NCBI RefSeq assembly: GCF_058153355.1
Contig: NZ_CM177019.1
Length of the DNA: 64,000 nucleotides
Direction: 5' to 3' (one strand)
Positions 5,260-26,649 of this stretch are shown one piece after another. The first letter of the stretch is position 1. Each line of letters opens with the position of its first letter. The notes under the pieces were generated by a model. The model ran no database searches. It was not told the origin of the DNA and saw only the letters and a list, made by a program, of their open reading frames with translations. The position numbers were made by a program, and so were the translations under genes.

Positions 5260-5356
5260 AGGAAACCTGGCTGATCAAGGCCCTCTCACACGGAGAAGGG
5301 CGTTTAACATAACCACGGATTGTAACGTGAGATGGGTCAGGAGGACATATCGCGCA

Positions 5357-5965: not shown

Positions 5966-6180
5966 GCCGAGTCCTTTGTGCGAGGAAAAATATCAGTATG
6001 GCCTGGTGATGGGAAAAAGGGCAGAAAATGTTGATGGTTTGTTACTTCCCAATAAATCACATATTTATCATGGTGATATAAATATTTTCCTAATTGTTCT
6101 TATCTGACAGATATCTCACTTAAGGCTTTCTTATAAATCTGTAGGGTTTGCACCATGAGTGCGGTAGCTATGAGGTTTAT

Positions 6181-8493: not shown

Positions 8494-8576
8494 AGAGTGA
8501 CCGCCTGTAATTGGCGTGTTTTTGCATAAATGGAACAGGGTTTTGTAGTGAAAACATATTGCTAAGGAGGATTTAT

Positions 8577-9422
8577 ATGGGAGATGGAAAGGGTAGTACG
8601 AGCGGAAAAAGCCAGAGCGGTGAACAGTGTGTAGTTTTAAAGGAGGGAAAAATTACTAATGATTTTAAAATAATGATGAGAGAGGCTCTGAAGGCGCTGA
8701 TGGCTGTATTGAAGAAAAGAGTAGAAGATCTTGGTGATAAATGGGGAGAGGAACAAAATCAGGAGTTTATAAATATATTTGGTATTGATGGAAATACTTA
8801 TATTAAATTAGAGTTCCCTTTCGGGGGGCGTAAGGTTATGTTTCCAGAGAATATAAAGGCAAGGGATTATATGAGAAATGGCGTTACTCGCCTGTATGAG
8901 ATATGTGGGGAATTATCTGTGGAAGGTGATTGTGTAGACGTTACTATTCATGACCATTTCCTCAAACGTGATGCCAATTGTAATCTTGTTCTTAATGACA
9001 AAGGGGGTAATGAATATGTTGACAAAGACGTAATCAGGCCCAAAACCGGTAACTTTGTGAATTGTACAGATAATGACGCTTATGCTGCCAATGTAACTTA
9101 CGATCAGATTTTGGGTGTAAAACCTGGAGGCTTTAAAAGTTTGGTAAGTATAACTATAGGACAAAGATTTATAGATAGGCCACCCACTGGGAAAAACTCT
9201 AAGGCATCGACACTCTGCCATGAACTATCTCACTTTATAAGGTACGGGGATTCATTTAAGTTTGGAGGCATGTGGACGGAAGATATGCCGGTAGATATAG
9301 AGTATAATACAGGTGACGAATATATTGTTCATGCCACTAAATTAAAAAATGATAAAAAATCAGAACTATTTCAGAATGCATATAATATCGAACGTTATTT
9401 CGAGATTCATGTACCATATTGA
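8577..9422 (+). CDS. hypothetical protein with HExxH zinc-metallopeptidase-like motif; candidate VgrG1 cargo effector
   Basis: ATG at 8577 preceded by AAGGAGG RBS; 281 aa; motif CHELSHF (HExxH) near the C-terminus followed by acidic NTGDEY; strongly AT-rich next to GC-rich vgrG; directly downstream of vgrG1. Confidence 0.6.
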   Translation: MGDGKGSTSGKSQSGEQCVVLKEGKITNDFKIMMREALKALMAVLKKRVEDLGDKWGEEQNQEFINIFGIDGNTYIKLEFPFGGRKVMFPENIKARDYMRNGVTRLYEICGELSVEGDCVDVTIHDHFLKRDANCNLVLNDKGGNEYVDKDVIRPKTGNFVNCTDNDAYAANVTYDQILGVKPGGFKSLVSITIGQRFIDRPPTGKNSKASTLCHELSHFIRYGDSFKFGGMWTEDMPVDIEYNTGDEYIVHATKLKNDKKSELFQNAYNIERYFEIHVPY

Positions 9423-9446
9423 TGCTTTTATTTGACGGGGGAGTAT

Positions 9447-10355
9447 ATGCTTGCTAGATGGATTGTTTTTATTGTTTTTTTTGCGCATCCAATATTTGCT
9501 TATGATATCTCTGGCGATTATGCTGTTCATTACAGATATGGGAAGTTATATTGGAATGGAGTAATGGACAAACTTGGTGTCTATCCTCGTGTAGAGCCGA
9601 CAAGGCTTAATTATTATGATTATTATGATGATCTTTCAGCCTATGCTGTTTTTCAATATTATACTATCAGTAAAAATGAGAGTCAGTATAATCAAGATAA
9701 AAATAAAATATATCTTCATCTTTCCGTGCATCAGAAAGAAAATATTGTAGCAGCTGCAGTGGTTTTATCGAATAAAAGCCAGGGATCTTATTTTGTTCAT
9801 CGACTAACTCTTCCTCTTGACGTTAACGGCGGGCCTTACTCTTCCTTGTGTAGTGGTGTGTTTATACCGATAATGGATAACATTCAGTTGGATTTTTTAA
9901 AAAAAACAAAATGTAGCTTTGGTGAATGGAAAAATAAATCCGTTTGGCACGAGATATTAACAGGGAAAGAGCTATCCTTTGATGTCATATTGAACGATTA
10001 TTATGCCTTTTTACCGGGCATTCATCGTTATAATATAGGAACGGTAGAATTTACAATAGTTAATCAAGAGTGGTTTACAGAACAATGTATATATGAGTAT
10101 TTTCTTTCTATTATGAACTGGCGGGCAGAAAGTGAGTGTACTAATCCTATAGATAAAATAAGATATGGTATAGAGGAGTGGCGGGTTTGGAGAATTTGTG
10201 GACCTTATCGTGGGTCAGGTCTATTTCAGGATTTTTTAGCACGCTTTGGCTATCATGGCGGTAATGATAATATATTCAAAATAAGATCAAATCAGGTTGT
10301 GGTTACTATTGATGGGGATAGGGCATCTCCTCCTTATTCGTTGAGGAATTATTAA
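9447..10355 (+). CDS. hypothetical secreted protein (N-terminal signal peptide); candidate immunity or partner of the upstream HExxH protein
   Basis: ATG at 9447 with GGGGGAG RBS; N-terminus MLARWIVFIVFFAHPIFA is a typical Sec signal peptide; Tyr/Trp-rich, AT-rich; starts 25 nt after the stop of the previous gene. Confidence 0.55.
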   Translation: MLARWIVFIVFFAHPIFAYDISGDYAVHYRYGKLYWNGVMDKLGVYPRVEPTRLNYYDYYDDLSAYAVFQYYTISKNESQYNQDKNKIYLHLSVHQKENIVAAAVVLSNKSQGSYFVHRLTLPLDVNGGPYSSLCSGVFIPIMDNIQLDFLKKTKCSFGEWKNKSVWHEILTGKELSFDVILNDYYAFLPGIHRYNIGTVEFTIVNQEWFTEQCIYEYFLSIMNWRAESECTNPIDKIRYGIEEWRVWRICGPYRGSGLFQDFLARFGYHGGNDNIFKIRSNQVVVTIDGDRASPPYSLRNY

Positions 10356-10510
10356 TGTTAACTTATTGTCATGGCTACAATTCGTTGGTTTTCCTGTTGA
10401 GATGATAATATATATGAGAAAAACAGGCAATGAACCAGTGAGAGAATATCAGAAGATACGGTCAACATCGGTTAATTACTTTTTCCTGTAGCGATACCAG
10501 GGAGGTCATC

Positions 10511-12712
10511 ATGTCATTAAAAGGGCTGCGCTTTACGCTGACGGTGGACGGACTGGTGCCGGAGACGTTTGCGGTGGTGGATTTCCGCCTCACGCAGGCA
10601 TACTCATCGCCGTTCGTCCTGGATGTGGACGTTGCCAGCGACTCGTTCCGCCAGACGGCGGAGAAGCTGCTGGAGAAGGGGGCCGTACTGACCATCTGGC
10701 AGGGTGGCACGGCGCTGCGTTATGTGAGCGGTGTGGTGTCGGGGTTCGGCATGAAGGAGCACAACGGCTGGCAGATGCAGTACCACCTTCAGATACGTCC
10801 GCCCCTGTGGCGCAGCGGGCTGCGCCAGAACTACCGAATCTTCCAGCAGCAGGACATTCAGGCCATCTCCGCCACGCTGTTAAACGAGGACGGAGTGACG
10901 CAGTGGACGCCGCGCTTTTATGAGAGCCACCCGGCACGGGAGTTCTGCGTCCAGTACGGTGAAAGCGACATGGCGTTTCTGACCCGGCTGTGGGCGGGGG
11001 AAGGCATCTTCTTTTATGACAGATACGCTGACGACAGCCCGGAGCAGACGCTCACGCTGTGCGATGATGTGGCGGGCCTGCCGGTGTACGGGGAGATACC
11101 GTTTAACCCGAACACCCGTGAGGTGACGACGGCGTGCATCAGCCTGTTCCGCTACCAGGCGCAGGTGCGGCCCTCGCAGGTGCGTTCAAAAGACCACACG
11201 TTTAAGGTGCCGGACTGGCCGGGTATTTACATTGAGGATGCTGAAAACCTCAACGGGCAACTGAAGCAGTACAAAATCCTGGACTGGCCGGGGCGCTACA
11301 AGGACGAGCAGCATGGTCAGGACTTTACCCGCTACCGGCTGGAAGGGCTGCGTAACAGTGCTGAAACCGCCACAGGTATCAGTAACTCCCCGGCGCTGTG
11401 GCCGGGACGGCGGTTCACCTTGACGGGGCATCCGGTACAGGGAGCGAACCCGAACCGTGAGTGGCAGGTGGTGAGCAGCACGCTGACGGGGAGCCAGCCG
11501 CAGGCGCTGCACGGGAGTCACGGTGAAGGGACGACACTGAGCAATCAGTTTGAGGTGATACCGGCAGACAGGACGTGGCGTCACGCGCCGCTGCCGAAGC
11601 CGAAGGTGGACGGCCCGCAGAGTGCCATCGTGACCGGGCCGAAGGGTGAGGAGATATTCTGCGACGAGCATGGCCGGGTACGGGTGAAGTTTCACTGGGA
11701 CCGTTATCACGGGATGACGGAGGAGAGTTCGTGCTGGATACGGGTGTCGCAGGCATGGGCGGGACCGGGGTTCGGCAATCTGGCGATACCGCGTGTGGGT
11801 CAGGAAGTGATAGTGGACTTTCTGAACGGCGACCCGGACCAGCCCATTGTGACGGGGCGGACCTACCATGAAGATAACCGTTCACCGGGGGATTTACCGG
11901 GCACGCGGACGCAGATGACCATCCGCTCGAAGACCTATAAAGGAAGCGGCTTTAATGAACTGCGTTTCGAGGATGCGACGGACAGTGAGCAGGTGTATAT
12001 CCACGCGCAGAAGAACATGGACACGGAGGTGCTTAACGACCGGACGACGGACGTGAAGCATGACCATACGGAGACCATCGGTAACGACCAGAAGATAAGG
12101 GTGGTGAAGGGGCAGACGGTTGAGGTCGGCACCAGAAAAGAAGGGGGTCACGACCAGAGTATCACGGTGGCGAACGACCGGCGCATAACGGTACGTAATG
12201 ACCAGACGCTGAAGGTGACGAATGACCGGACGGTGAGCGTGAGTCACGATGACGGCCTGTATGTCAGAAACGACCGTAAAGTGACGGTGGAAGGGAAGCA
12301 GGAGCATAAGACGACGGGGAACCATATCAGCCTGGTGGAGGGAAAGCACAGTCTGGAGGTGAAGGGCGACCTGGCGAGGAAGATTACCGGTGCGCTGGGA
12401 ATGAAGGTCCGGAATGAAATCGTACTGGAGAGTGGCGGTAAAATCACCCTAAAGGTGGGTGGTTCGTTTGTGGTCATCCATTCAGGGGGCGTGGACATCG
12501 TCGGGCCGAAAATCAATCTCAATAGCGGCGGTAGTCCGGGAACGCCGGTGCCGACGCTACGACCGGCGGTTTTGAAAGCGCTGGCAGATTATGACAATGG
12601 CGGACCTGGAACTGAAGGGGCGGAGCCACCACGGAAAAGTGTACAGGAAGCCTTTGATCCTCCCCAGCAGGATAAGGTACCGCCACAACGGCCGGGAAGA
12701 TTCTCACGATAA
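10511..12712 (+). CDS. vgrG: T6SS spike protein VgrG (copy 2) with short Pro-rich C-terminal tail
   Basis: 733-aa ORF, N-terminus MSLKGLRFTLTVDGL...; central about 0.88 kb is nucleotide-identical to vgrG1; GGAGG RBS upstream. Confidence 0.92.
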   Translation: MSLKGLRFTLTVDGLVPETFAVVDFRLTQAYSSPFVLDVDVASDSFRQTAEKLLEKGAVLTIWQGGTALRYVSGVVSGFGMKEHNGWQMQYHLQIRPPLWRSGLRQNYRIFQQQDIQAISATLLNEDGVTQWTPRFYESHPAREFCVQYGESDMAFLTRLWAGEGIFFYDRYADDSPEQTLTLCDDVAGLPVYGEIPFNPNTREVTTACISLFRYQAQVRPSQVRSKDHTFKVPDWPGIYIEDAENLNGQLKQYKILDWPGRYKDEQHGQDFTRYRLEGLRNSAETATGISNSPALWPGRRFTLTGHPVQGANPNREWQVVSSTLTGSQPQALHGSHGEGTTLSNQFEVIPADRTWRHAPLPKPKVDGPQSAIVTGPKGEEIFCDEHGRVRVKFHWDRYHGMTEESSCWIRVSQAWAGPGFGNLAIPRVGQEVIVDFLNGDPDQPIVTGRTYHEDNRSPGDLPGTRTQMTIRSKTYKGSGFNELRFEDATDSEQVYIHAQKNMDTEVLNDRTTDVKHDHTETIGNDQKIRVVKGQTVEVGTRKEGGHDQSITVANDRRITVRNDQTLKVTNDRTVSVSHDDGLYVRNDRKVTVEGKQEHKTTGNHISLVEGKHSLEVKGDLARKITGALGMKVRNEIVLESGGKITLKVGGSFVVIHSGGVDIVGPKINLNSGGSPGTPVPTLRPAVLKALADYDNGGPGTEGAEPPRKSVQEAFDPPQQDKVPPQRPGRFSR

Positions 12713-12721
12713 GGACTGAAC

Positions 12722-15211
12722 ATGAAAATCAGCCATCCCATCAGGGATAAAGAAGGCAAAGAGTTTCGCTCACTGGATGAGATAATGCGGCTTATTGACA
12801 AAGAAGCGCACGGAACCTGGCTGCTGGGTGGAAACGGGCTGTGGCACGGCGGGATACATATCAGTGACGTGTCTAATCCGTTATCAGCCCTGAAACCGGA
12901 TACCGCCGCTACCGGAGAACCGGTTCCTCTTCAGTTTATGGCCGATGGCACCATTGCGGCGTACCGGATAAATAATGATTACCTGAAAGGCCCCTACAAA
13001 GGGCAGCAACTCCGTTACAGCAGCACATTTGTTCTGGTGAAATCGCAGTGCCAGCCAGACCCGCAAAAAAAAGAAAGCTGGCTGGAATTTTACTGTCTCT
13101 ATATGCATCTGGCCCCGGTGAACGATTATCCCGGCTCCCCCTGCTATAAAGTTAAAACCGGGCATGGTGGCATATTGCTGCACCGATACATCCCGGGAAA
13201 GAACGGCCTTCCCGAGGGGCAGGAAAGCGGAGATCATGCCACGTACTGGATACCCCCGAAAATCAGCGGAAACAGGACACTTAATGCGGGAGATCGGTTT
13301 GTGTCATCCCGGACCGGACGTTTTTACGTGACCAATAACGGCCAGCCGGTCCTGACGACATTCGGACTGGTTCGCCTGCTGGAAGGCAATAAACCGGGGA
13401 ATGAGCAGTACTGGGTGACCCTGGATCCGGATCTGATGGAGTCAGATGGCGAAATACAGATGCTGATGCCTGAGTGGATGCAGAAGGCGAAGGCAAAAGG
13501 CATTTTTGACTCGGTACAGACGGTCGACGAAACGGAAGAGTGGAAAGTCAGTGCCGGAACACCGGTCGGATTTATGGGATGCGAGGATTATCCTGGCGAG
13601 GGAAGCGGTGAGATTGAGCGCGAGTGGTTCGTCCATCTGGAGGTTCTGAGTACAGACCCGAATATGCCAAAGTTCTTATCCAACCCGGCAGGCGTTAAGG
13701 GAGAAAAACGGACTGTTCTGGCACCAAAAGGGATAATTTTATACACCCGGCAGGCCGTTCCGGGACAGGAGGTATTTACCGCAACCGCAGCCACGCTGGG
13801 TGCTCAGCGCGTTCTTCCGCGGGAAGCCACGACACCAGTCACGGATGAATCGCAGCAGTGGTGGTTTAATATCACCGGAACCGGCTGGCTGCCACAAAAG
13901 GATGTTGAAGAGGCCGGACAGTATGATTTACTGAAGCTGGGTTTTCAACCGCTGGAGGAGAACAGCAGCGGTGACATGACGTACAGCCCGTACGAAGGAT
14001 GGGTGCCGGAAGCGTTTGACTCAATAAGCCGTGCCGCAGAACAGGGAGATGAGTGGCTGTATGAGCAGGTACCGCCCTTTTATCGTGAGCTGATGGCGGG
14101 TATGGATCAGGACGGTGATGGAAAAGTGACGGAGGAAGAGATCAGACAGGCGCTGATCGTGCGTGAACCACTGGTGAGAAATGTGGTGAATCATCTGATA
14201 GTTAAACACCACAGCGAATGGTACGGAGGGCGCTCGACAGGGCGGTGGGAAGGATTTTATAAAGATCTGGATACAGAGGAAGTGGCATACTGTGAGAAGT
14301 GGCAGCTGGATCTGGAGTGGATGAGCGGGGTATCTCCGTTTAATAGTGATGATGCTGTGTGGCATTTTCATCCGGTTGTGTTTTTGGACGCTATTAATTC
14401 CAAATCTGTGTGTGCTTGCAACAGAGATATAACATTAGATGAATTAAAAAAAGTTGCTCCTGCAGTAAGTGAAGGTCTTCTCAAAAGGTACCTCTACGAT
14501 ATAAATGCAGGGTTTATTCGGTTTGGTATGACCACTTGTAGAGAAAAAGCCCATTTTCTTGCTCAAATTATTCACGAGAGCGGTTATTTTAGATATACCA
14601 AAGAAATTAATGGTGAATCAGCTTCATATAGTCCGTGGTATGGCCGAGGCTTAATACAAGTTACAGGCGAAAGTAATTACACCGCCTATGGGGAATATAT
14701 CAATGAGGACGTAACATCTTCAGATTCCGCAAGAGATAAACTCATATCCTCCCCACATTGCGTATTATCTGCGTTTTGGTATTTCAATATATTCAAAAGA
14801 ATAAATGAAGATGCTAAAAATGATGATTTTAATAAAATTACAGTAGTGATTAATGGAGGGTATAATCATTATGATGAACGGTTGTCGATATTTAATAAAT
14901 TGGTTACCTCACTTGCTGCCGAGCATTTAAATCAGAAAGAAATGAACGACGATTTCTTGTTTGATGATAGTGACGTATATGATAATAAAGTATATGCTTT
15001 GGGATGGGGGATATGGCATGATCCTGATAGCTCCCGAAGAGGGACGATCAAGAGTAACGAAGAAGCATTAAAAGGTTATAGAAGGGCGAAAGAATTAATT
15101 GACCTGCATCCGTTTCCTCAGGAAGGGCGTGAGGGTGATAGAAAAGTATATGGAATAGAAAAAAGGAATATATCCACATTTGTAGAGAGACGAATAACTG
15201 AACTGGAGTAA
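12722..15211 (+). CDS. modular T6SS effector candidate: unknown N-terminal domain, EF-hand, C-terminal GH19 (chitinase/lysozyme-like) peptidoglycan hydrolase domain
   Basis: 829-aa ORF 9 nt after the vgrG2 stop; canonical EF-hand loop DQDGDGKVTEEE; C-terminal motifs AHFLAQIIHESG and YGRGLIQVTGESNY match GH19-family catalytic signatures; the C-terminal third is AT-rich compared with the N-terminal part. Confidence 0.75.
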   Translation: MKISHPIRDKEGKEFRSLDEIMRLIDKEAHGTWLLGGNGLWHGGIHISDVSNPLSALKPDTAATGEPVPLQFMADGTIAAYRINNDYLKGPYKGQQLRYSSTFVLVKSQCQPDPQKKESWLEFYCLYMHLAPVNDYPGSPCYKVKTGHGGILLHRYIPGKNGLPEGQESGDHATYWIPPKISGNRTLNAGDRFVSSRTGRFYVTNNGQPVLTTFGLVRLLEGNKPGNEQYWVTLDPDLMESDGEIQMLMPEWMQKAKAKGIFDSVQTVDETEEWKVSAGTPVGFMGCEDYPGEGSGEIEREWFVHLEVLSTDPNMPKFLSNPAGVKGEKRTVLAPKGIILYTRQAVPGQEVFTATAATLGAQRVLPREATTPVTDESQQWWFNITGTGWLPQKDVEEAGQYDLLKLGFQPLEENSSGDMTYSPYEGWVPEAFDSISRAAEQGDEWLYEQVPPFYRELMAGMDQDGDGKVTEEEIRQALIVREPLVRNVVNHLIVKHHSEWYGGRSTGRWEGFYKDLDTEEVAYCEKWQLDLEWMSGVSPFNSDDAVWHFHPVVFLDAINSKSVCACNRDITLDELKKVAPAVSEGLLKRYLYDINAGFIRFGMTTCREKAHFLAQIIHESGYFRYTKEINGESASYSPWYGRGLIQVTGESNYTAYGEYINEDVTSSDSARDKLISSPHCVLSAFWYFNIFKRINEDAKNDDFNKITVVINGGYNHYDERLSIFNKLVTSLAAEHLNQKEMNDDFLFDDSDVYDNKVYALGWGIWHDPDSSRRGTIKSNEEALKGYRRAKELIDLHPFPQEGREGDRKVYGIEKRNISTFVERRITELE

Positions 15212-15216
15212 TTGAT

Positions 15217-15627
15217 ATGAAAGTTAATTTATTGGTTTTACTGTTTTGTTTGGTGCCTTGTTGTTTATTGGCTAAACAACAAACAACGGTAGGCTGTTTT
15301 AGCGCTGGGAAAACAAATTTAAAGTTTGTTGAAATATCGTCTGGCGATATTTTTTTAGGTTATGTGATTTATGAGAAATCCTCAAAATTTATACCTCTTG
15401 CGTTTATAAATAAATTAGAAGTGACTTTCGATGACAGGCCTTCTGAATTTTCTTATGCATGGAGCGAGGTTGTAAATGGAAAAATTAATGGGTTGTATGT
15501 TGTTTCCACACAAGGTGCAAGATTTAATTTGTTTCATTATAAATCAATAAGTGGGAAAACAACTGAGTTTGAAGAAAATATTGAGGCATATAATGATGAT
15601 GGTACTGATTGCAAATGGACTGGATGA
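15217..15627 (+). CDS. putative periplasmic immunity protein for the GH19-type effector
   Basis: 136-aa ORF starting 6 nt after the effector stop; N-terminal signal peptide MKVNLLVLLFCLVPCCLLA; AT-rich like the toxin domain. Confidence 0.6.
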   Translation: MKVNLLVLLFCLVPCCLLAKQQTTVGCFSAGKTNLKFVEISSGDIFLGYVIYEKSSKFIPLAFINKLEVTFDDRPSEFSYAWSEVVNGKINGLYVVSTQGARFNLFHYKSISGKTTEFEENIEAYNDDGTDCKWTG

Positions 15628-15789
15628 CCATTGTGCAGTTTTTTATGAAATCGATGCTGTGTTATTAAAATAATAATGCGACTAGGTTGAATTTGTTTAT
15701 TATTAATTTAAATGTTTTATGATTTTAAGTTAGACATGAATAACTGACTGGAAAATTATTTTTGAGGGATATCGTACAGGCAGGCAGGG

Positions 15790-17070
15790 AAAGATCACGT
15801 AACGCTGCTTTTTTGTACTATACAATTCGCATTTTATGTTTGAAAATTGAGATATTCCTCATTACCTGAAGCTGTTTTTTATTGCTTATACATGATCAAA
15901 TACTCCTTACATAATTAAGGAGAACAAAATGGTACTTAAAAAATTGATGGAACATATTTCTATTATCCCCGATTACAGACAAGCCTGGAAAGTGGAACAT
16001 AAATTATCGGATATTCTACTGTTGACTATTTGCGCCGTTATTTCGGGTGCAGAAGGCTGGGAAGATATAGAGGATTTTGGGGAAACACATCTCGATTTTT
16101 TGAAGCAATATGGTGATTTTGAAAATGGTATTCCTGTTCACGATACCATTGTCAGAGTTGTATCCTGTATCAGTCCTGCAAAATTTCACGAGTGCTTTAT
16201 TAACTGGATGCGTGACTGCCATTCTTCAGATGATAAAGGCGTCATTGCAATTGATGGAAAAACGCTCCGGCACTCTTATGACAAGAGTCGCCGCAGGGGA
16301 GCGATTCATGTCATTAGTGCGTTCTCAACAATGCACAGTCTGGTCATCGGACAGATCAAGACGGATGAGAAATCCAATGAGATTACAGCTATCCCAGAAC
16401 TTCTTAACATGCTGGATATTAAAGGAAAAATCATCACAACTGATGCGATGGGTTGCCAGAAAGATATTGCAGAGAAGATACAAAAACAGGGAGGTGATTA
16501 TTTATTCGCGGTAAAAGGAAACCAGGGGCGGCTAAATAAAGCCTTTGAGGAAAAATTTCCGCTGAAAGAATTAAATAATCCAGATCATGACAGTTAAGCG
16601 ATTAGTGAAAAGAGTCACGGCAGAGAAAAAATCCGTCTTCATATTGTTTGCGATGTCCCTGATGAACTTATTGATTTCACGTTTGAATGGAAAGGTCTGA
16701 AGAAATTATGCGTGGCAGTCTCCTTTCGGTTAATAATAGCAGAACAAAAGAAAGAGCCAGAAATGACGGTCAGATATTATATCAGTTCTGCTGATTTAAC
16801 CGCAGAGAAGTTCGCCACAGCAATCCGAAACCACTGGCACGTGGAGAATAAGCTGCACTGGCGTCTGGACGTGGTAATGAATGAAGACGACTGCAAAATA
16901 AGAAGAGGAAACGCCGCAGAATTATTTTCAGGGATACGGCACATCGCTATTAATATTTTAACGAATGATAAGGTATTCAAGGCAGGGTTAAGACGTAAGA
17001 TGCGAAAAGCAGCCATGGACAGAAACTATCTCGCGTCAGTCCTTGCGGGGAGCGGGCTTTCGTAATCTTG
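15790..17070 (+). mobile_element. H-repeat (H-rpt) element, ISAs1 family, nearly full length
   Basis: Encodes the H-repeat-associated transposase-like protein; its 5' end, including about 140 bp upstream of the ATG, recurs at 19865-20290 and in degenerate form at 21975-22635; element boundaries are approximate. Confidence 0.75.
15929..17065 (+). pseudogene. ISAs1-family (H-repeat-associated) transposase, interrupted by a single in-frame TAA
   Basis: ORFs 15929-16597 and 16712-17065 are in the same frame (669 and 114 nt offsets are multiples of 3) and separated only by TAA at 16598-16600; combined length about 378 codons, the size of intact H-rpt proteins. Confidence 0.75.
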
Positions 17071-17075
17071 CCCTG

Positions 17076-19492
17076 GAGGTGATACCGGCGGACAGGACGT
17101 GGCGTCACGCGCCCCTGCCGAAGCCGAAGGTGGACGGCCCGCAGAGTGCCATCGTGACCGGGCCGAAGGGCGAGGAGATATTCTGCGACGAGCATGGCCG
17201 GGTACGGGTGAAGTTTCACTGGGACCGTTATCACGGGATGACGGAGGAGAGTTCATGCTGGATACGGGCGTCGCAGGCATGGGCGGGACCGGGGTTCGGC
17301 AATCTGGCGATACCGCGTGTGGGTCAGGAAGTGATAGTGGACTTTCTGAACGGCGACCCGGACCAGCCCATTGTGACGGGGCGGACATACCATGAGGACA
17401 ACCGTTCACCGGGGGATTTACCGGGCACGCGGACGCAGATGACCATCCGCTCGAAGACCTATAAAGGAAGCGGCTTTAATGAACTGCGTTTCGAGGATGC
17501 GACGGACAGTGAGCAGGTGTATATCCACGCGCAGAAGAACATGGACACGGAGGTGCTTAACGACCGGACGACGGACGTGAAGCATGACCATACGGAGACC
17601 ATCGGTAACGACCAGAAGATAAGGGTGGTGAAGGGGCAGACGGTTGAGGTCGGCACCAGAAAAGAAGGGGGTCACGACCAGAGTATCACGGTGGCGAACG
17701 ACCGGCGCATAACGGTACGTAATGACCAGACGCTGAAGGTGACGAATGACCGGACGGTGAGCGTGAGTCACGATGACGGCCTGTATGTCAGAAACGACCG
17801 TAAAGTGACGGTGGAAGGGAAGCAGGAGCATAAGACGACGGGGAACCATATCAGTCTGGTGGAGGGAACGCACAGTCTGGAGGTGAAGGGCGACCTGGCG
17901 AGGAAGATTACCGGTGCGCTGGGAATGAAGGTCCGGGATGAAATCGTACTGGAGAGTGGTGGTAAAATCACCCTGAAGTGGGTGGCTCGTTTGTGGTCGT
18001 TCATTCTGGTGGTGTGGATATTGTCGGACCGAAAATAAATCTGAATTGCGGGCGCAGTCCGGGGACGCCGATAAATACACTACAACCGGCAGTTATGGAC
18101 GCTCTGGCTGACGAGCAGTATGACAGAGGGAATGCTGGCGGCGGGAATGACGGAGAGCCTAGTGATGAGGATGAATCAGAAGGTGGAGAAGAAGACAAGG
18201 ACGATTCAGATGAACTGGTAATTCCTGTATACGCAAAATCTTGTCTGAAGGAGAAAGGCTGCACTGATGCTGGTACGACCATGGAGCCATCGAAACATTT
18301 TGGTGATATGGCTCTATTTGCCCAGCCAGTGGAGGATGACTGTTGCGGCTATGGTACACACTATCATGACGATGAAGTGGAGCAACTTGCGCAGTCAGCA
18401 AAAAAAACCTCAGGAGCGAACTCACTGACGGGGGAAATGACAGTTGCGTCAGCGGGTGTTGCGGTTCCACTAGCGGCGGAACAGTCTGCGGGAGTTTTAA
18501 CTCGCGTATGGGGAACATTAGGGGCATGGGGTGGAGAAGGTTTTTTAAGTGTATCAAAAACGGTGCCAGCCCTTGGTGTCCTAGTATCAGCACTATATCC
18601 AATACCTGCCGGTGAAGGTAGTGATAAAGTTCCTGGACGGGATGAACAGTGGCTCGAAAATGAGCTACGTCGTAAAGCGCAATCTGGAGAGACGGCAGCT
18701 ACGCGGGCGCGCTTTCTCTTTCAGCGGAATACTGCTGGTGAATTGAGGACATACGGATACCACACACCCGCAGGTTCGGAACTTGAAGGTGTTCGGGTAG
18801 CATTGATGGAGTGGAATAAGGAATTTTCCCGTTATGAATTTTCACCTGTGTCTGATTCGGGACCAAAAATATTTTGGACGCCTGCAAAGCCAGAAGGTTC
18901 AGAGCAGCCCATACACACCGGAACTCCTGTCGAACCAGTTGATCTACCTGATATTTATGTTAATCCGATACCCGATGAAAAAACAGATATCACCACGCCG
19001 CCTTCTCCAATGCCGGAGGAGCGAAATTTTAATGACTGGATACTTGTCTTTCCTGACGGTGCGGAATTAACACCAATATATGTGTATCTGAAAACTGCAA
19101 GGGATGTAGCGGGAACAGTAACAGGTAAGGGGGAGGTGTTAGCAGGTACAGGAAGATGGCTGTCGCAGGCGGGGAAAAGCTTAGGAGTGCCAATTCCACA
19201 ACAGGTCGCAAATAAACTTCGGAGTAAGTCATTTAACAATTTTGATGAATTCATGGCAGCTTTCTGGACTGCTGTAGGTGAATGTCCAGAACTATTGAGC
19301 CAATTTAATAAAGCTAACCAAACGTTGATAAAGCGTGGACGCGCACCTTATACTATATCAAGACAAAGAGTTGGGGGGCGAGGTACATTTGAAATTCATC
19401 ATATTGACGAAATCCAATATGGGGGAGAAGTCTATGATATTGATAATCTTAGAGTAAACACACCTAAAAACCACATACGATTGCATAAATAA
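17076..19492 (+). pseudogene. 5'-truncated, frameshifted vgrG (copy 3) fused to colicin E9-like HNH DNase toxin domain
   Basis: vgrG homology begins abruptly at about 17076, right after the H-rpt end, so the N-terminal half is missing; a 1-nt deletion near 17977 (ctgaagtgggtgg here, ctaaaggtgggtgg in vgrG2) splits the reading frame; C-terminal domain ...GRGTFEIHHIDEIQYGGEVYDIDNLRVNTPKNHIRLHK matches the colicin E9/E7 DNase HNH motif. Confidence 0.8.
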
Positions 19493-19505
19493 AAAGGAGG
19501 TAGTA

Positions 19506-19778
19506 ATGGAGTTTAAAAATAATCTAGAAGATTATACGGAAGATGAATTTATCGAACTTCTAAATAATTTTTTTGAACCACCTGAGGAATTGCATGGCGA
19601 TAAGTTGTCGAAGTTTATTGATGATCTTGTAAGTCATTTTATTAGAATCACTCAGCACCCAGATGGTAGTGATTTGATATTCTATCCATCTGAAGATAGA
19701 GAAGATAGTCCCCAAGGGATTGTTGATGAGTTAAAACGATGGCGAGCATCGCAGGGGCTAGGATGCTTTAAAATATAA
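19506..19778 (+). CDS. colicin DNase-type immunity protein (Im9/Im7-like)
   Basis: 90-aa ORF 14 nt after the DNase stop with GGAGG RBS; MEFKNNLEDYTEDEFIELL...HPDGSDLIFYP...DSPQGIV...RWRASQG aligns with the Im9 family (DYTE.EF, HP.GSDLI.YP, DSP.GIV). Confidence 0.85.
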   Translation: MEFKNNLEDYTEDEFIELLNNFFEPPEELHGDKLSKFIDDLVSHFIRITQHPDGSDLIFYPSEDREDSPQGIVDELKRWRASQGLGCFKI

Positions 19779-19864
19779 TGAAAATAAATACTCATCATAT
19801 TTTATTAAAATGATTGGTGTTTTTGTTATTAACCTTAAACCACTTCCTGAGAAGGTGGTACAGG

Positions 19865-20295
19865 GAAAGATCACCAGAAGTACACTTTTTGTACTAAATA
19901 ATTCGCATTTTATGTTCAATAATTGAGATATTCCTCATTACCTGAGGCTGTTTTTTATTGCTTATACATGATCAAATACTCCTTACATAATTAAGGAGAA
20001 CAAAATGGAACTTAAAAAATTGATGGAACATATTTCTGTTATTCCTGATTACAGACAAGCCTGGAAAGTGGAACATAAATTGTCGGATATTCTACTTTTG
20101 ACTATTTGCTCCGTCATTTCTGGTACAGAAGGCTGGCAAGATATAGAGAATTTTGGGGAAACACATCTCGATTTTTTGAAGCGACATGGTGATTTTTGAA
20201 ATGGTATTCCTGTTCACATACCATTGCCAGAGTTGTATCCTGTATCAGCCCTGCAAAATTTCATGAGTGCTTTATTAAAAGGAAACCAGGGGCGG
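19865..20295 (+). mobile_element. H-repeat 5' fragment (includes truncated 64-codon transposase ORF 20005-20199)
   Basis: Near-identical to 15790-16210 of the full H-rpt; the ORF ends prematurely (GDF then stop); joined through a short internal H-rpt piece (GNQGRL) to effector-derived sequence. Confidence 0.75.
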
Positions 20296-21465
20296 CTTAA
20301 TATCACCGGAACCGGCTGGCTGCCACAAAAGGATGTTGAAGAGGCCGGACAGTATGATTTACTGAAGCTGGGTTTTCAACCGCTGGAGGAGAACAGCAGC
20401 GGTGACATGACGTACAGCCCGTACGAAGGATGGGTGCCGGAAGCGTTTGACTCAATAAGCCGTGCCGCAGAACAGGGAGATGAGTGGCTGTATGAGCAGG
20501 TACCGCCCTTTTATCGTGAGCTGATGGCGGGTATGGATCAGGACGGTGATGGAAAAGTGACGGAGGAAGAGATCAGACAGGCGCTGACCGTGCGTGAACC
20601 ACTGGTGAGAAATGTGGTGAATCGTCTGACAGTCAGACACCACAGCGAGTGGTACGGCGGTCGCTCGACGGGACGCTGGGAAGGGTTTTATAAAGATCTG
20701 GACACCGAGGAAGTGGCATACTGTGAAAAGTGGCAGCTGGATCTGGAGTGGATGAGCGGGGTGTCTCCGTTTAATAGTGATGATGCTGTGTGGCATTTTC
20801 ATCCGGTTGTGTTTTTGAATGCTATTAATAATAGCAATTACCCAAAAACTCCTGTGAATAATGAACTTATTCCATTGGAATTTTTACGATTTTATAACGG
20901 AGATACCATTGATGATGCAGACTATGAAAATGCTGCAAGGACACTACAATGCGAAGTGGCTGCAATTAAAGCTGTTGCAAAAACTGAAACTGGTAGTTCC
21001 GGTAGCTATTTTAAATTTGAACAAGAAGATGATTACGTCCCCTCAATTCTTTTTGAAAGACATCATTTCCATCGATATACGAATGGTGTGTATGATTCTC
21101 AACCTGATATTTCCAACAGCCGTTCTGGCGGTTATGGAACACGATCGGAGCAATATCAAAAATTACTTCGTGCATATGTTTTAGATAAGCAAGCTGCGCT
21201 TAAATCGGCATCGTGGGGTAAATTTCAGATATTGGCTTCAAATTACCAAGCTACCGGGTACTCTTCGCCCGAAGAGTTTATAATATCGATTTCAGAGTTA
21301 GAGAAAAACCATCTGGCGGCATTCATTAACTTCATAAAATCTAATCCTGTATTATTGCGTGCTATTAGAGATAAAGATTGGCTTAACTTTGCTCTATGTT
21401 ATAATGGGCAAAGTCAGCGAGGATATGATGACAGAATAAGGGCTAATTATGAGCAATATAGATAG
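20224..21465 (+). CDS. orphan, N-terminally truncated effector module: conserved EF-hand middle region plus alternative C-terminal N-acetylmuramidase (DUF3380-like) domain
   Basis: Residues from NITGTGWLPQKDVEEAG through HPVVFL are about 95% identical at nucleotide level to 13865-14395 of the 829-aa effector, then diverge into a C-terminus with ILFERHHFHRYT, SWGKFQILASNY and LCYNGQSQ motifs typical of the DUF3380 muramidase family; the first 20 codons derive from H-rpt sequence in another frame. Confidence 0.7.
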   Translation: MPELYPVSALQNFMSALLKGNQGRLNITGTGWLPQKDVEEAGQYDLLKLGFQPLEENSSGDMTYSPYEGWVPEAFDSISRAAEQGDEWLYEQVPPFYRELMAGMDQDGDGKVTEEEIRQALTVREPLVRNVVNRLTVRHHSEWYGGRSTGRWEGFYKDLDTEEVAYCEKWQLDLEWMSGVSPFNSDDAVWHFHPVVFLNAINNSNYPKTPVNNELIPLEFLRFYNGDTIDDADYENAARTLQCEVAAIKAVAKTETGSSGSYFKFEQEDDYVPSILFERHHFHRYTNGVYDSQPDISNSRSGGYGTRSEQYQKLLRAYVLDKQAALKSASWGKFQILASNYQATGYSSPEEFIISISELEKNHLAAFINFIKSNPVLLRAIRDKDWLNFALCYNGQSQRGYDDRIRANYEQYR

Positions 21466-21898
21466 AGCATTAATTTTTATTTTTTTATCTGGAATTCCCT
21501 GGACTCTACACGCAGGAAATAATTATTTTTTATGTAATACATCCAAAGGAACTTTGTCATTAACAAGTTTTGGTGAAACGTTGATTTATGAAATGAATAG
21601 TCAGCATGGGAATAAATTTCAATTCATTTCAGATGGACCAATGTATTCAGGATTTTTTTATAATCATTACTCCAGATTTCAAACGGATTACTTTAGCGTT
21701 AGTTTTATTCAAAGTGGATATAAGTACTCCGTGTTTAGCAATTACGACAACGGTAGTAACATGCGAGGGGTTAGTGTCATTGATATGAAAACAAAAAAAG
21801 AATACGTTTATAATTGCAAAGATTATAAAGTGGACAGGCTTTATAATCTGAAAAAAAAGCTTAAATGTGATATTAATAATGTACTAAGTTGTCAGTAA
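21449..21898 (+). CDS. putative periplasmic immunity protein for the orphan muramidase domain
   Basis: 149-aa ORF overlapping the toxin stop by 17 nt; N-terminal signal peptide (MSNIDRALIFIFLSGIPWTLHA); AT-rich. Confidence 0.55.
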   Translation: MSNIDRALIFIFLSGIPWTLHAGNNYFLCNTSKGTLSLTSFGETLIYEMNSQHGNKFQFISDGPMYSGFFYNHYSRFQTDYFSVSFIQSGYKYSVFSNYDNGSNMRGVSVIDMKTKKEYVYNCKDYKVDRLYNLKKKLKCDINNVLSCQ

Positions 21899-21904
21899 AT
21901 TGTA

Positions 21905-22640
21905 TCTTACAACGTTCGGGCGGTACGATTTACTGAAGCTGGCTTTTCATAGGCTGGAGGAAAACAGCAAGGGTAATAAAGGTAAAGACCATATAACGCC
22001 GATTTTTTGCACTAAACAATTAGCACTAAATGTCCAATAATCAAGATATCCCTTATTATTTAATAAGTGTTTTCATAGCTTATATATATTCAGACACTCC
22101 TTACATAAACAAGGAGAAAAAATGGAACTTAAAAAATTAATGGAGCATATTTCTACTGTCCCGATTACAGACAAGTCTGGAAAGTAGAGTATAAATTATC
22201 AGATATCCTAGTGCTGATTATTTTCGCCATCCTTTCCGGAGCTGAAGGATGGGAAGATATAGAGGATTCTGGTGAGACTCATCTCGATTTGTTGAAGCAA
22301 TATGGTGATTTTTAATATGGTATTCCTATTCACGATATCATTGCCAGAGTTGTGTCCTGTATCAGTCCTGGAAAATTTCACGAGTTCTTTATTAGCTGGA
22401 TGTGTGACTGTCATTCTTCAGATAATAAAACCATCATCGCAATAGATGGAAAAGCACTCCAGCACTTTTTTGATTAGCATCGTCGCAGAGGAACAATTCA
22501 TAATCATTGCGATCTCGACGATGTATAGTCTGATCCTGCGGCAGAACAAGACGGATAAAAAATCTAATGAGAGCACACTCATCAAGAACTTCTCAACCTA
22601 ATGAATATTAAAGAAAAATCATCGCAGCCAATGAAGTAAT
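21905..22640 (+). mobile_element. degenerate third module remnant: effector middle-region fragment plus decayed H-repeat 5' portion
   Basis: 21920-21975 resembles the effector YDLLKLGFQPLEENS coding sequence; 22124-22635 is a diverged H-rpt 5' part with several in-frame stops. Confidence 0.6.
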
Positions 22641-22697
22641 ATGCAAAAATAATTAGTCCTTACAAGGAGCAAAGTTCCATAATCTCCCCCGCCCCCC

Positions 22698-23834
22698 TCA
22701 ATGATCCAAATAAAGATAATGCATCCAACTGGTCATTCTTAGCAGCACTTTCCGCATCACCGAAACATGGCTGAAATGGTCGGAGTAAACCGCCACCTGG
22801 GCGTAGATACCGTCGGGTAAGGCATCAATATCAGCGTTAGGGTCCAGTTCGATGGTTCCCAGCACACCGTCCGTGCCGGGCACGACGGTTAATGATTGCA
22901 GTACCCCTTGCGCCTGATACGAACCACCAGGCACCACCGGCAAGATGCTGGTCAGTTTGCCGTGGAATACCTGCCCAGGTAGCGCGTTAAACACCACTTC
23001 CGCATCATCGCCGGGTTTCAGACGTAACAGCGAGTTCTGCCGAAATTGGGCGACAATTTGCCGTTTTTGCTCGGGGATGAAAACCATCACCGGACGTAGC
23101 GGCAAGGCAGCTGCGTATGTACCTGGGCGGATCAGTACCTGAGTAACGTAGCCATTGCTTGGTGCGCGAATGACAGTCTGCTCAAGGTTATATTTTGCTT
23201 CGGTAAGTTGCGCTCTTAAGCTCACAATCTGCGATTGCTCGCCGTTAACCATACTGTCGAGCTGACTCTGGATCTGCGCCTGCTCCGCCACCGAGCCTTT
23301 CACCAGCGCGTCCTGCGCGAGGAAGTTTTGCCGCGCATCGTCGATGTCACGTTCCGAGAACGGATTCACTGCCGCCTGGCTGCCTTTCAGGTAACGTTGA
23401 TAATTTTTAAACAAGCGGTCACGCTCCGCTGAAACCTGGGTGGTGTTGGCCTGCGCTTCAGTGAGCTGCGCGCGCAGCGTCTTTATATTATGCGTCGCCG
23501 TCATCAGGTCAGCCTGAAGCCTGTCAACTCGCACCTGGTAACGAACCGGGTCGAGTTTAAAAAGCACCTCGCCCTTTTGAATAAGCTGATTATTCTTGTC
23601 AGTGACTTCAGTAACAATTCCCGTCACCTGTGGCGTGATGGGGATCGCTATCACTGCCTTTTGCGCGGTAAAAGTGTAAGGGTGGTTGTAGTTCATCAAC
23701 AAAATCAAACCACTCACCAGAAACACGCCTCCCAGCGCCGCCGTCGCCAGCGTCCACTGATTTACCGGAATGCGGAAGATTTTAAAGACCGCCCACGCCA
23801 GCGCCACGTAAGTTAAAACAATCAATAGATCCAT
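22698..23834 (-). CDS. yibH: HlyD-family membrane fusion / inner membrane protein YibH
   Basis: 378-aa ORF with N-terminal TM helix, coiled-coil middle and beta-barrel C-terminus typical of HlyD/EmrA-like proteins. Confidence 0.85.
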
Positions 23835-23836
23835 AT

Positions 23837-24199
23837 TTAGATCTCCGGGAACGTGGAATAGTCAGTCTTTTTCTCGGCGGCGAGTTGATGCTCCAGCCGG
23901 GAAATTCGGTCAGAAAGTGCGGCGATTTCCGGGTCAGTCGCTTTCTCCTGCGACGCAACATGTGACTGCATACCCCAGCCACGCTCCGGTTGATAGAGCG
24001 TCGCCCAGATCCACAGGAACGGCCAGATAACATGCAGAGTAAACAGGCTCACCCAGCCCGCCGTATGAATAGCGTCGGCATGGGGGTGATTGCGCTTTTT
24101 GGCAATCAGATAAGGGATGTCATGTATCGCGATGATTCCATAAAAAATCACCAGAAAGACGAAGATCAGCACTCCCAACGCGAAATAGTTTAGAAACAT
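23837..24199 (-). CDS. yibI: small inner membrane protein YibI (DUF3302)
   Basis: 120-aa ORF with hydrophobic N-terminal segment, 2 nt upstream of yibH (operon). Confidence 0.8.
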
Positions 24200-24415
24200 A
24201 TCTGCCTCGGATTCACGTTTATCGGTGTTGTTTTTTGGCTGGCAGCCAGAAGGGAGTCAGGCTGATATTTTGACAATAATTCGGGTTCGCGATTCTCGCC
24301 ATAACACCAAAGAATAATTTTTAGAGGTGATGAGTTGCTTAGTTACATAACGATTTTATGACGAAGGCATAACATGCTGCAGATCACATCAGGTGAACGC
24401 CGTAAGAAAATATCT

Positions 24416-24592
24416 TGTGATTCAGATCACAAAGATTCAACAAACTAACAAAACAAAAATGTGACATTACTCACATTTAAATGCCATTTTTAGCGAAAAT
24501 CGCCGTCTTGTTGCTTTTTTACACAAGTATTTTGTGATGCACATCACGTCAATTACCTCTCTACCCCCTATATTTATGTGATCTATATCACA
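24416..24592 (+). promoter_or_regulatory. mtlA promoter region with four TGTGA-N6-TCACA (CRP-type) palindromes
   Basis: Palindromes at 24416-24431 (TGTGAttcagaTCACA), 24460-24475 (TGTGAcattacTCACA), 24533-24548 (TGTGAtgcacaTCACg) and 24577-24592 (TGTGAtctataTCACA), upstream of mtlA. Confidence 0.7.
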
Positions 24593-24735
24593 CAAAAAGC
24601 CGTCGACTGGACAGTTAACCGATTCAGTGCCAGATTTCGCACTATCAACAAGGTCCGGCTACCTCTGCCGCCACATTAACAAAAAACCTCGGGCTTCCAG
24701 CCTGCGCGACAGCAAACATAAGAAGGGGTGTTTTT

Positions 24736-26649
24736 ATGTCATCCGATATTAAGATCAAAGTGCAAAGCTTTGGTCGTTTCCTCAGCAACATGGTGATGCC
24801 AAATATCGGCGCGTTTATCGCGTGGGGTATCATCACCGCGTTATTTATTCCAACAGGGTGGTTACCGAACGAAACGCTGGCGAAGCTGGTCGGGCCGATG
24901 ATCACTTATCTCCTGCCGCTGCTGATCGGTTATACCGGTGGTAAGCTGGTAGGCGGCGAACGTGGCGGCGTAGTCGGTGCCATCACCACCATGGGCGTTA
25001 TCGTCGGCGCAGATATGCCGATGTTCCTCGGTTCTATGATTGCAGGTCCGCTGGGCGGCTGGTGCATTAAGCACTTCGACCGCTGGGTAGACGGTAAGAT
25101 CAAATCCGGTTTTGAGATGCTGGTGAATAACTTCTCCGCTGGCATCATCGGGATGATCCTCGCTATTCTGGCGTTCCTCGGCATTGGCCCAATTGTTGAA
25201 GCCCTGTCCAAAATGCTGGCTGCGGGCGTTAACTTCATGGTTGTCCATGACATGCTGCCGCTGGCGTCTATCTTTGTTGAACCGGCGAAAATCCTGTTCC
25301 TCAACAACGCCATTAACCACGGTATCTTCTCGCCGCTGGGTATTCAGCAGTCCCATGAACTGGGTAAATCCATCTTCTTCCTGATTGAAGCTAACCCAGG
25401 TCCGGGTATGGGTGTTCTGCTGGCGTACATGTTCTTTGGCCGTGGTAGCGCTAAACAGTCTGCGGGCGGTGCGGCAATCATTCACTTCCTGGGGGGTATC
25501 CACGAAATCTACTTCCCGTATGTGCTGATGAATCCGCGTCTGATCCTGGCCGTTATCCTCGGTGGTATGACTGGCGTATTCACGCTGACTATCCTGGGCG
25601 GTGGTCTGGTTTCACCGGCATCTCCGGGTTCTATCCTTGCTGTACTGGCAATGACACCAAAAGGTGCTTACTTCGCTAACATCGCGGGTGTGTGTGCGGC
25701 GATGGCAGTCTCCTTCGTTGTCTCTGCTATTTTGCTGAAAACCAGCAAAGTGAAAGAAGAAGATGACATTGAAGCAGCAACGCGTCGTATGCAGGACATG
25801 AAAGCTGAATCTAAAGGTGCATCTCCGCTGTCTGCTGGCGATGTGACTAACGACCTGAGCCACGTCCGTAAAATCATCGTTGCCTGTGATGCCGGTATGG
25901 GTTCCAGTGCGATGGGCGCAGGTGTGCTGCGTAAGAAAATTCAGGATGCAGGTCTGTCGCAGATTTCTGTTACTAACAGCGCGATCAACAACCTGCCGCC
26001 AGATGTGGACCTGGTCATCACTCACCGTGACCTGACCGAACGCGCTATGCGCCAGGTTCCGCAGGCACAGCATATTTCGCTGACCAACTTCCTCGACAGC
26101 GGCCTGTACACCAGCCTGACCGAACGTCTGGTTGCTGCCCAGCGCCATACTGAAAACGAAGTAAAAGTGAAAGACAGTCTGAAAGACAGCTTTGACGATT
26201 CCAGTGCTAACCTGTTCAAACTGGGCGCGGAGAACATCTTCCTTGGTCGCAAAGCGGCAACCAAAGAAGAAGCGATTCGTTTTGCTGGCGAGCAGCTGGT
26301 GAAAGGCGGTTACGTTGAGCCGGAATACGTTCAGGCGATGCTGGATCGTGAAAAACTGACCCCGACCTATCTGGGTGAGTCTATCGCGGTGCCGCACGGT
26401 ACGGTTGAAGCGAAAGACCGCGTACTGAAAACGGGCGTGGTGTTCTGCCAGTACCCGGAAGGCGTGCGCTTCGGTGAAGAAGAAGATGACATTGCCCGCC
26501 TGGTGATTGGTATTGCTGCCCGTAACAACGAGCACATTCAGGTGATCACCAGCCTGACCAATGCACTGGATGATGAGTCCGTCATCGAGCGTCTGGCGCA
26601 CACCACCAGCGTGGATGAAGTGCTGGAACTGCTGGCAGGTCGTAAGTAA
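24736..26649 (+). CDS. mtlA: PTS mannitol-specific EIICBA component
   Basis: 637-aa ORF; membrane EIIC domain followed by EIIB and EIIA domains; precedes mtlD and mtlR. Confidence 0.95.
   Translation: MSSDIKIKVQSFGRFLSNMVMPNIGAFIAWGIITALFIPTGWLPNETLAKLVGPMITYLLPLLIGYTGGKLVGGERGGVVGAITTMGVIVGADMPMFLGSMIAGPLGGWCIKHFDRWVDGKIKSGFEMLVNNFSAGIIGMILAILAFLGIGPIVEALSKMLAAGVNFMVVHDMLPLASIFVEPAKILFLNNAINHGIFSPLGIQQSHELGKSIFFLIEANPGPGMGVLLAYMFFGRGSAKQSAGGAAIIHFLGGIHEIYFPYVLMNPRLILAVILGGMTGVFTLTILGGGLVSPASPGSILAVLAMTPKGAYFANIAGVCAAMAVSFVVSAILLKTSKVKEEDDIEAATRRMQDMKAESKGASPLSAGDVTNDLSHVRKIIVACDAGMGSSAMGAGVLRKKIQDAGLSQISVTNSAINNLPPDVDLVITHRDLTERAMRQVPQAQHISLTNFLDSGLYTSLTERLVAAQRHTENEVKVKDSLKDSFDDSSANLFKLGAENIFLGRKAATKEEAIRFAGEQLVKGGYVEPEYVQAMLDREKLTPTYLGESIAVPHGTVEAKDRVLKTGVVFCQYPEGVRFGEEEDDIARLVIGIAARNNEHIQVITSLTNALDDESVIERLAHTTSVDEVLELLAGRK

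Follow-up and report, generated by a model that had tools for sequence, protein, structure and literature searches.

Orphan toxin-immunity modules are described downstream of polymorphic toxin genes, both as Rhs/CDI orphans and in the vgrG/paar-island arrays of T6SS (Koskiniemi et al. 2014, cited in PMC12992299; PMC9796082). The region analysed here, which lies at the right edge of a T6SS cargo island in an Escherichia chromosome, is similar to these modules in that a full effector and a true orphan precede it and in that it begins with a piece of the conserved recombination region, and the neighbouring orphan is found fused to a full N-terminus in another genome. It differs from them in carrying neither a toxin domain nor an immunity gene, being cut off by an insertion sequence (IS) after 58 bp. 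A second point of comparison is SARI_02625 of Salmonella arizonae SPI-21, an EF-hand-containing T6SS peptidoglycan-hydrolase effector in which the EF-hand is combined with M23 and endolysin domains (PMC12992299). The EF-hand effector family from which the short effector piece (the stub) derives resembles SARI_02625, a likeness of shared architecture and not of aligned sequences, whereas the stub itself is a 20-codon piece with 17% divergence that lacks a start codon and any domain.

For the IS that follows the stub, the closest described elements are K-12 H-rptB, which was taken as the reference (1291 bp, termini CAGGGAAAGATCA...TAATCTTGCCCTG, carrying yhhI), and ISEc1. As in these elements, the sequence is colinear from the first base, the N-terminus matches PF13808 and both termini are recognisable in degenerate form, that on the right being a probable assignment; unlike them, it is only 80-86% identical, has most likely lost approximately 570-600 bp of the interior with most of the DDE domain, and contains four frameshifts and at least two stops. 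A shorter version of the same remnant is known in K-12 as yibU (b4652), which consists of H-rpt positions 428-654 (K-12 L002 9946-10175 aligns with the yibU segment of the window). yibU occupies the same place directly after the yibH stop, has the same H-rpt end point, carries the same two 1-bp deletions (H-rpt positions 604 and 640) and is followed by the same tail at 97% identity; by position, end point and shared derived lesions, the corresponding segment examined here is therefore its orthologue. On the other hand, K-12 keeps positions 428-654 only, whereas positions 1-654 are kept here together with the left inverted repeat and the upstream effector stub, and the neighbouring cargo is an rhsA array in K-12 and a vgrG/effector array here. 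In three RefSeq genomes, the orthologous stretch is called an ISAs1-family transposase pseudogene by PGAP. Two things make up the region: an ISAs1 pseudogene that had already been annotated and represents the long form of yibU, and a 58-bp scrap of effector sequence.

The best explanation overall, in which we place considerable confidence, is that the region represents a non-functional fossil (effector scrap plus internally deleted H-rpt) that was left at the island edge by IS insertion and deletion. Taken alone, the fossil matters little. It is useful as an evolutionary marker of the island edge: the right boundary of the variable yibF-yibH toxin island is fixed by it, the rhsA island of K-12 and the vgrG/effector island are seen to have both ends in common, and, together with three sequences described below (L086, N96 and L005), it illustrates how C-terminus/immunity modules are exchanged while an old edge persists.

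Layout and boundaries of the yibF-yibH island

The window, i.e., the whole stretch of 64,000 nucleotides that was analysed (NCBI RefSeq assembly GCF_058153355.1, contig NZ_CM177019.1), contains the cargo island between selA-yibF and yibH-yibI-mtlADR. The yibF/yibH site is the rhsA site in K-12. The features of the island and of its right edge are collected in Table 1.

Table 1. Coordinates in the window of the island features and of the fossil at its right edge.
Feature	Coordinates	Strand	Basis or remarks
vgrG	6148-8493		ORF listing + Pfam
M35-like effector	8511-10355		ORF listing + Pfam
Second vgrG	10511-12712		ORF listing + Pfam
Effector E1, 829 aa	12722-15211		EF-hand at aa 455-478; homologues named GH19/chitinase
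Immunity gene with signal peptide	15217-15627		ORF listing + Pfam
H-rpt copy 1, full length, 1291 bp	15785-17075	+	96.9% to K-12 H-rptB
5'-truncated vgrG fused to S-pyocin/colicin DNase	17076-19492
Colicin-type immunity gene of the DNase fusion	19506-19778
H-rpt copy 2	19861-20302	+	Element positions 1-419 plus 27 bp of positions 728-754; joined to the orphan effector
Orphan effector fragment	20287-21465	+	Mid-region 20287-20829, then PF11860 muramidase C-terminal domain
Predicted immunity gene of the muramidase module	21449-21898	+	Signal-peptide-like N-terminus; last intact gene before the fossil
Effector stub	21917-21974	+	58 bp, similar to codons 398-417 of ORF 12722-15211
Decayed H-rpt left part	21979-22630	+	Element positions 1 to ~654
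yibU-orthologous sub-segment	22403-22630	+	H-rpt positions 428-654
Probable H-rpt right end, decayed	22631-22692	+	22655-22690 similar to H-rpt positions 1254-1289
Final island bases, C run	22693-22696
yibH, HlyD-family protein, right chromosomal flank	22698-23834	-

By scanning genomes for YibH, four loci (L006-L009) were recovered from E. whittamii and three other Escherichia lineages. All of them are empty sites with a yibF-yibH spacer of only approximately 31 bp, and they align with the window up to position 6003 and resume at 22697; consequently, the island can be delimited to approximately 6004-22696, a length of 16.7 kb. Two of the three non-whittamii empty-site lineages are labelled E. 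coli. Homology to K-12 extends to 6149 on the left side of the window and begins again at 22403 on the right. The K-12 and window islands have approximately 146 bp in common at the left end (6004-6149, upstream of vgrG/rhsA) and 294 bp at the right end. A composite-transposon model was considered and dropped because a comparison of the left end (5995-6147) with the H-rpt gave no signal above shuffled sequences (score 12 versus 11.4).

Several differences were seen among related genomes. The M35-family metalloendopeptidase-like effector (8511-10355) is split into two ORFs in the window and in MFDS1022581 and is a single 594-aa ORF in N96. In the flanks (4010-6149 and 22403-24955), the core genes are only approximately 97% identical to those of K-12, and the segment 22403-23000 is approximately 94% identical to that of many other E. 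coli. An exact match to the window is absent among complete E. coli genomes, the best being N96 at approximately 98-99%.

The effector stub and the decayed H-rpt element

By comparing 21800-22760 with the window using BLASTN, the segment 21917-21969 (53 bp) was found to be 84.9% identical to 13915-13967 and equally to 20346-20398 (E 3e-11), and local alignment lengthened this match to the full 58 bp at approximately 83% identity. The local score of 38 compares with 8.2 +/- 1.3 in shuffled sequences, none of 1000 shuffles reaching 38 (z ~23). The stub encodes the in-frame peptide GRYDLLKLAFHRLEENSKG, which corresponds to GQYDLLKLGFQPLEENSSG in effector E1, and it originates from the conserved region just upstream of the EF-hand in the E1-type effector family. 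Its divergence exceeds that between the two other mid-region copies of the window, which are 96% identical. Both a start codon and a toxin domain are absent from it.

With respect to the structure of an orphan module, the 5' homology to the upstream full-length effector is present in the stub (58 bp in frame), no toxin segment follows it, only H-rpt lying between the stub and yibH, and no cognate immunity gene was found, the ORFs within 21900-22697 being H-rpt pseudogene fragments or short antisense ORFs only. The gap between the stub and the left end of the H-rpt is 4 bp. In addition, the sequences that directly precede H-rpt copy 1 (15700-15784) and copy 2 (19779-19860) gave only chance-level local alignments with the effector mid-region, which implies that the H-rpt is not a fixed part of the module. 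For the same reason, the idea that the H-rpt has a preferred target in, or travels together with, an effector flank was abandoned. An exact search of JGI metagenome contigs with a 27-mer spanning the junction of the stub and the left repeat returned no match.

These results bear on the original prediction, in which the region was described as a heavily degraded module remnant consisting of an effector middle region at 21920-21975 and a decayed H-rpt 5' portion. The comparison of 21800-22760 with the window gave significant matches to both proposed sources, the effector and the H-rpt, and the likeness to the effector mid-region holds, with limits of 21917-21974. The term module remnant, by comparison, claims too much, because 58 bp of the homology region are present alone, without toxin domain or immunity gene, and the H-rpt, which had been counted as part of the module, is an IS in its own right.

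It is possible, although we consider it the less probable course, that a third orphan module was once complete, was displaced to the island edge and gradually wore away, the stub being what remains of its 5' end and the H-rpt a module-associated repeat. The full effector, the orphan and the stub stand in tandem with divergence rising along this order, a full-length effector in another assembly (L086, described below) shows that the orphan can be, or once was, a primary effector, and good documentation exists of displacement arrays in Rhs, CDI and T6SS islands (PMC12992299; PMC9796082). Against this, toxin or immunity sequence has left no trace in the fossil, the H-rpt copies elsewhere in the island lack an effector flank, as shown above, and both junctions of the fossil fall at IS ends (4 bp on the left and approximately 5 bp on the right), which points to discrete IS-mediated events. 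Therefore, insertion of the IS followed by deletion is preferred in what follows.

The H-rpt part of the fossil was aligned with the other copies by BLASTN. The segment 21980-22626 matched 15786-16438 of copy 1 at 80.4% over 654 bp (E 5e-167) and H-rptB positions 2-654 at 80.4% (E 1e-168), colinear from the left terminus of the element, and 22004-22394 matched 19886-20277 of copy 2 at 80.7% (E 3e-100). Homology in copy 1 had been expected to start at 15929; it begins at 15785, which is the IS left end upstream of the ORF. The identity to H-rptB is 80% for the fossil, compared to 96.9% for copy 1 and 93% for positions 1-419 of copy 2 (19861-20278), and the fossil is the most diverged copy in the window for both the H-rpt and the effector mid-region.

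The transposase pseudo-ORF of the fossil starts at 22122 and is interrupted by four frameshifting 1- or 2-bp deletions (H-rpt positions 183, 525, 604 and 640) and at least two in-frame stops, as anticipated for a decayed H-rpt 5' portion with multiple stops. The differences from H-rptB are distributed over codon positions 1:2:3 as 29:21:39, and the untranslated leader differs at 36 of 142 positions (25%). In copy 1, the corresponding distribution is 2:5:19, a pattern that bespeaks evolution under purifying selection. The even spread over codon positions, together with the frameshifts and stops, indicates that the fossil decayed neutrally, and most of its divergence would have accrued as unconstrained DNA. 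All of the lesions are common to the window, N96, MFDS1022581 and Escherichia sp. MOD1-EC7003, which are 99.2-99.4% identical here. The fossil translation matches PF13808 with 93 bits, only after manual correction of the frame. Of the two domains of the transposase (PF13808 DDE_Tnp_1_assoc and PF01609 DDE_Tnp_1), PF13808 alone was recovered, the DDE region being mostly deleted. Judged from these lesions, the fossil is a pseudogene, a dead H-rpt/ISAs1-family copy that is unable to encode a transposase.

Both termini are recognisable and degenerate. The left inverted repeat reads AAGGTAAAGACCA compared to CAGGGAAAGATCA in the reference (termini of the family begin with CAGGG), and the right end reads ...TAATCTCCCCCGC compared to ...TAATCTTGCCCTG, an assignment that rests on 25 of 36 matches. 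This right end was found in a 67-bp tail (22631-22697) that separates the H-rpt homology from yibH, and the predicted direct abutment of the remnant on yibH was accordingly not observed. Within the tail, 22655-22690 aligns without gaps to H-rpt positions 1254-1289 with a score of 14, compared to 6.6 +/- 1.2 in shuffled sequences (2 of 5000 reach 14). No competing match was found elsewhere in the H-rpt element, and the reverse strand scores 8. Although the match is short (25/36), the tail is probably the decayed right end of the fossil H-rpt, with the terminus at approximately 22692. This means that the element was most likely deleted internally, by approximately 570-600 bp, and not truncated at its 3' end. 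The H-rpt element is flanked by the effector stub on the left and by the chromosomal backbone on the right, and the original right flank is gone.

Relationship to yibU and distribution in E. coli

The K-12 and window remnants are 91.8% identical over 231 bp (8.2% diverged), while the adjacent yibH is 96.6% identical (3.4% diverged). The remnant thus diverges approximately 2.4 times faster than yibH, which fits unconstrained DNA. The right-hand (yibU) part is matched in 5401 of 5426 complete E. coli genomes, and among the matches listed, the partial ones start at 22403 in every case. In contrast, the stub with H-rpt positions 1-427 is present at 99% identity or more in only 3 of the 5426 genomes, the next-best matches to the long form (86% or less) being other ISAs1/ISEc1/ISEc5 elements. 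The muramidase module is as rare in E. coli as the long-form fossil. Intermediates, i.e., a longer stub, a 5' H-rpt without the stub or, at the same site, an H-rpt whose 3' part is intact, were found neither in the 5426 complete E. coli genomes nor in JGI metagenomes. The start of yibU (H-rpt position 428) lies close to the break in copy 2 (position 419), and a shared breakpoint hotspot at approximately 419-428 was considered; the junction sequences differ, and the proximity is treated as coincidence.

The divergence of the fossil from active H-rpts is patchy, with 92% identity at positions 301-420 and 72-77% at positions 481-660. Differences from ISEc1 amount to 37 of 283 (13%) in the 5' coding part and 52 of 227 (23%) in the yibU part (Fisher p=0.005). 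This gap is not predicted by a single uniform decay history and therefore counts against the best explanation, and it gives some plausibility to a later acquisition of the 5' part or to gene conversion in patches. It also favours a scheme in which the short K-12-type fragment is ancestral and the stub with H-rpt positions 1-427 was added by recombination with a decayed H-rpt inside an incoming effector gene, a scheme with which the rarity of the long form (three genomes) agrees. We regard it as unlikely. The 5' part is itself old and dead, being 14-17% diverged with differences of 9:10:16 over the codon positions, a frameshift and a stop; the level of divergence changes near H-rpt position 480 and not at 427; a second, independently decayed H-rpt donor would be needed; and the rarity is explained equally well by a species-wide sweep of the rhsA-type replacement.

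A very improbable explanation is that the fossil has been kept because it is useful, either as a homology anchor for cargo swaps or as a promoter, terminator or small RNA for yibH or the immunity gene. The K-12/window breakpoint does lie inside the fossil, at 22403, both island types have the right end (294 bp) and the left end (approximately 146 bp) in common, and H-rpt copies are clearly recombination substrates elsewhere in the island. However, a single identical breakpoint is found among the E. coli matches listed, which argues for a single event and not for recurrent use, and the fossil outpaces yibH in its evolution, as described above. Moreover, an Rfam search of the fossil at a permissive E-value returned only sub-threshold matches (RsaA with 27.9 bits against a gathering score of 50, and sR35), and a scan for promoters and terminators gave fewer promoter-like sites than in shuffled sequences and no terminator. 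The lack of these signals, combined with faster evolution than that of the coding neighbour, leads us to judge the fossil inert, with no apparent function today.

Recent insertion of a divergent ISAs1-family lineage that was soon truncated, which is conceivable in that identity to the nearest intact elements of E. coli (ISEc1) is no more than 83-86%, so that a separate lineage could be involved, is largely refuted by the even spread of substitutions over codon positions, the many frameshifts and stops, the lesions common to K-12 yibU, the presence of the fragment in nearly all genomes (5401/5426) and the absence of intact relatives above 86% from the 5426 genomes.

Proposed history of the island edge and turnover of its modules

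Returning to the preferred reading, a fossil formed by IS insertion and deletion, the following history may be proposed. First, at the distal end of the ancestral island, an effector gene or an orphan copy would have received an H-rpt in its mid-region by transposition, which is suggested by the intact IS end 4 bp from the stub. A deletion adjacent to the IS would then have taken away all DNA from the IS right end to the island edge beside the yibH stop codon, as the position of the probable IS right end approximately 5 bp from the island/backbone junction suggests. The IS is thus bordered by sequences that are unrelated to each other, the stub lying 4 bp from its left end and the backbone meeting its probable right end. 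The IS would subsequently have undergone internal deletion, which is probable in view of the tail, and gathered frameshifts and stops, which are seen directly in the fossil. Finally, the upstream DNA may have been replaced repeatedly. In most E. coli, the rhsA array now reaches H-rpt position 428, leaving yibU, and in the rare lineage of the window, the effector/immunity modules reach 21916, where the muramidase module and then the GH19 module would have been brought in. We infer the order of insertion, adjacent deletion and upstream replacement from the arrangement of the sequences.

Such an IS insertion with adjacent deletion appears to explain the junctions better than gradual erosion. Of the proposal that the oldest copy is eroding at the island edge, the age and the place are in keeping with the data, in that the fossil is the most diverged copy and lies at the distal edge, and the erosion is not, since the junctions fit insertion and deletion. 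Similarly, the proposed successive displacement agrees with the turnover of modules upstream of the fixed fossil in L086, N96 and MFDS1022581 (see below), and the stub itself may have been either a displaced orphan or the primary effector of the island.

More tentatively, and with somewhat less than even confidence, we suggest that the long-form fossil represents the ancestral right edge of the E. coli rhsA locus, i.e., that an island with a VgrG-linked, H-rpt-disrupted EF-hand peptidoglycan-hydrolase effector occupied yibF/yibH and that, between the same two ends, its cargo later gave way to the rhsA array of K-12 and most E. coli. If this is true, K-12 yibU is all that remains of a vgrG-effector island since lost, and the island boundary was set by H-rpt ends and not by toxin homology alone.

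The E1-type family is polymorphic in Enterobacteriaceae and combines a conserved N-terminal region of approximately 560 aa with varied peptidoglycan-hydrolase C-termini (GH19, PF11860, PF05838, M23 with PF00959, CHAP and PF16754). By type, the C-termini of family members are M23 with lysozyme, GH19, muramidase, CHAP or pesticin-like. Within the window, a mid-region stretch of 543 bp is common to E1 (13856-14398, plus strand, containing the EF-hand) and the orphan (20287-20829), with 96% identity. In a contig of Logan assembly DRR244934 (L086), positions 70-2740 encode P0005, a 749-aa full-length effector with the E1-type N-terminus, the mid-region and the muramidase C-terminus, which is the non-orphan counterpart of the orphan effector in the window. 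It is followed in order by the immunity gene that follows the orphan in the window, the same 58-bp stub, the same H-rpt remnant and yibH, and L086 thus has the arrangement that the window would have if all DNA between its two mid-region repeats were taken out. In N96 and MFDS1022581, the arrangement is that of the window with 16204-19860 missing, a segment bounded by H-rpt copies 1 and 2. At position 11033 of a contig from Escherichia sp. MOD1-EC7003 (L005), the H-rpt right end is joined to the end of the orphan mid-region, at the equivalent of window 20803, and the contig ends inside the IS. The junctions in L086, N96/MFDS1022581 and L005 establish the mid-region, as well as the H-rpt copies, as sites of rearrangement. 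The fossil downstream of these points is constant in the compared genomes. The comparison of genomes shows module exchange by homologous recombination at the 543-bp mid-region and at the H-rpt copies. Over essentially all of H-rpt positions 1-419, the site pattern in N96 is copy-1-like, a pattern from which the direction of the event between copies 1 and 2 is not readable.

Several details of these junctions were also observed. At the L005 junction, another IS terminus coincides with a module breakpoint. The module at 16204-19860 contains the 3' part of H-rpt copy 1, and the start of the 5'-truncated vgrG behind it falls exactly on the IS right end (17075/17076). The vgrG/S-type pyocin/colicin DNase fusion is spread over two overlapping ORFs (17043-18038 and 17978-19492) whose frames differ, as though by a frameshift. 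The fragment of H-rpt copy 2 might supply a start codon or a promoter to the orphan effector. At 20224-20302, the orphan ORF runs in frame through the 27 bp of H-rpt transposase coding sequence, and the H-rpt and the orphan are joined at a short microhomology, GGCGGCT.AATA.
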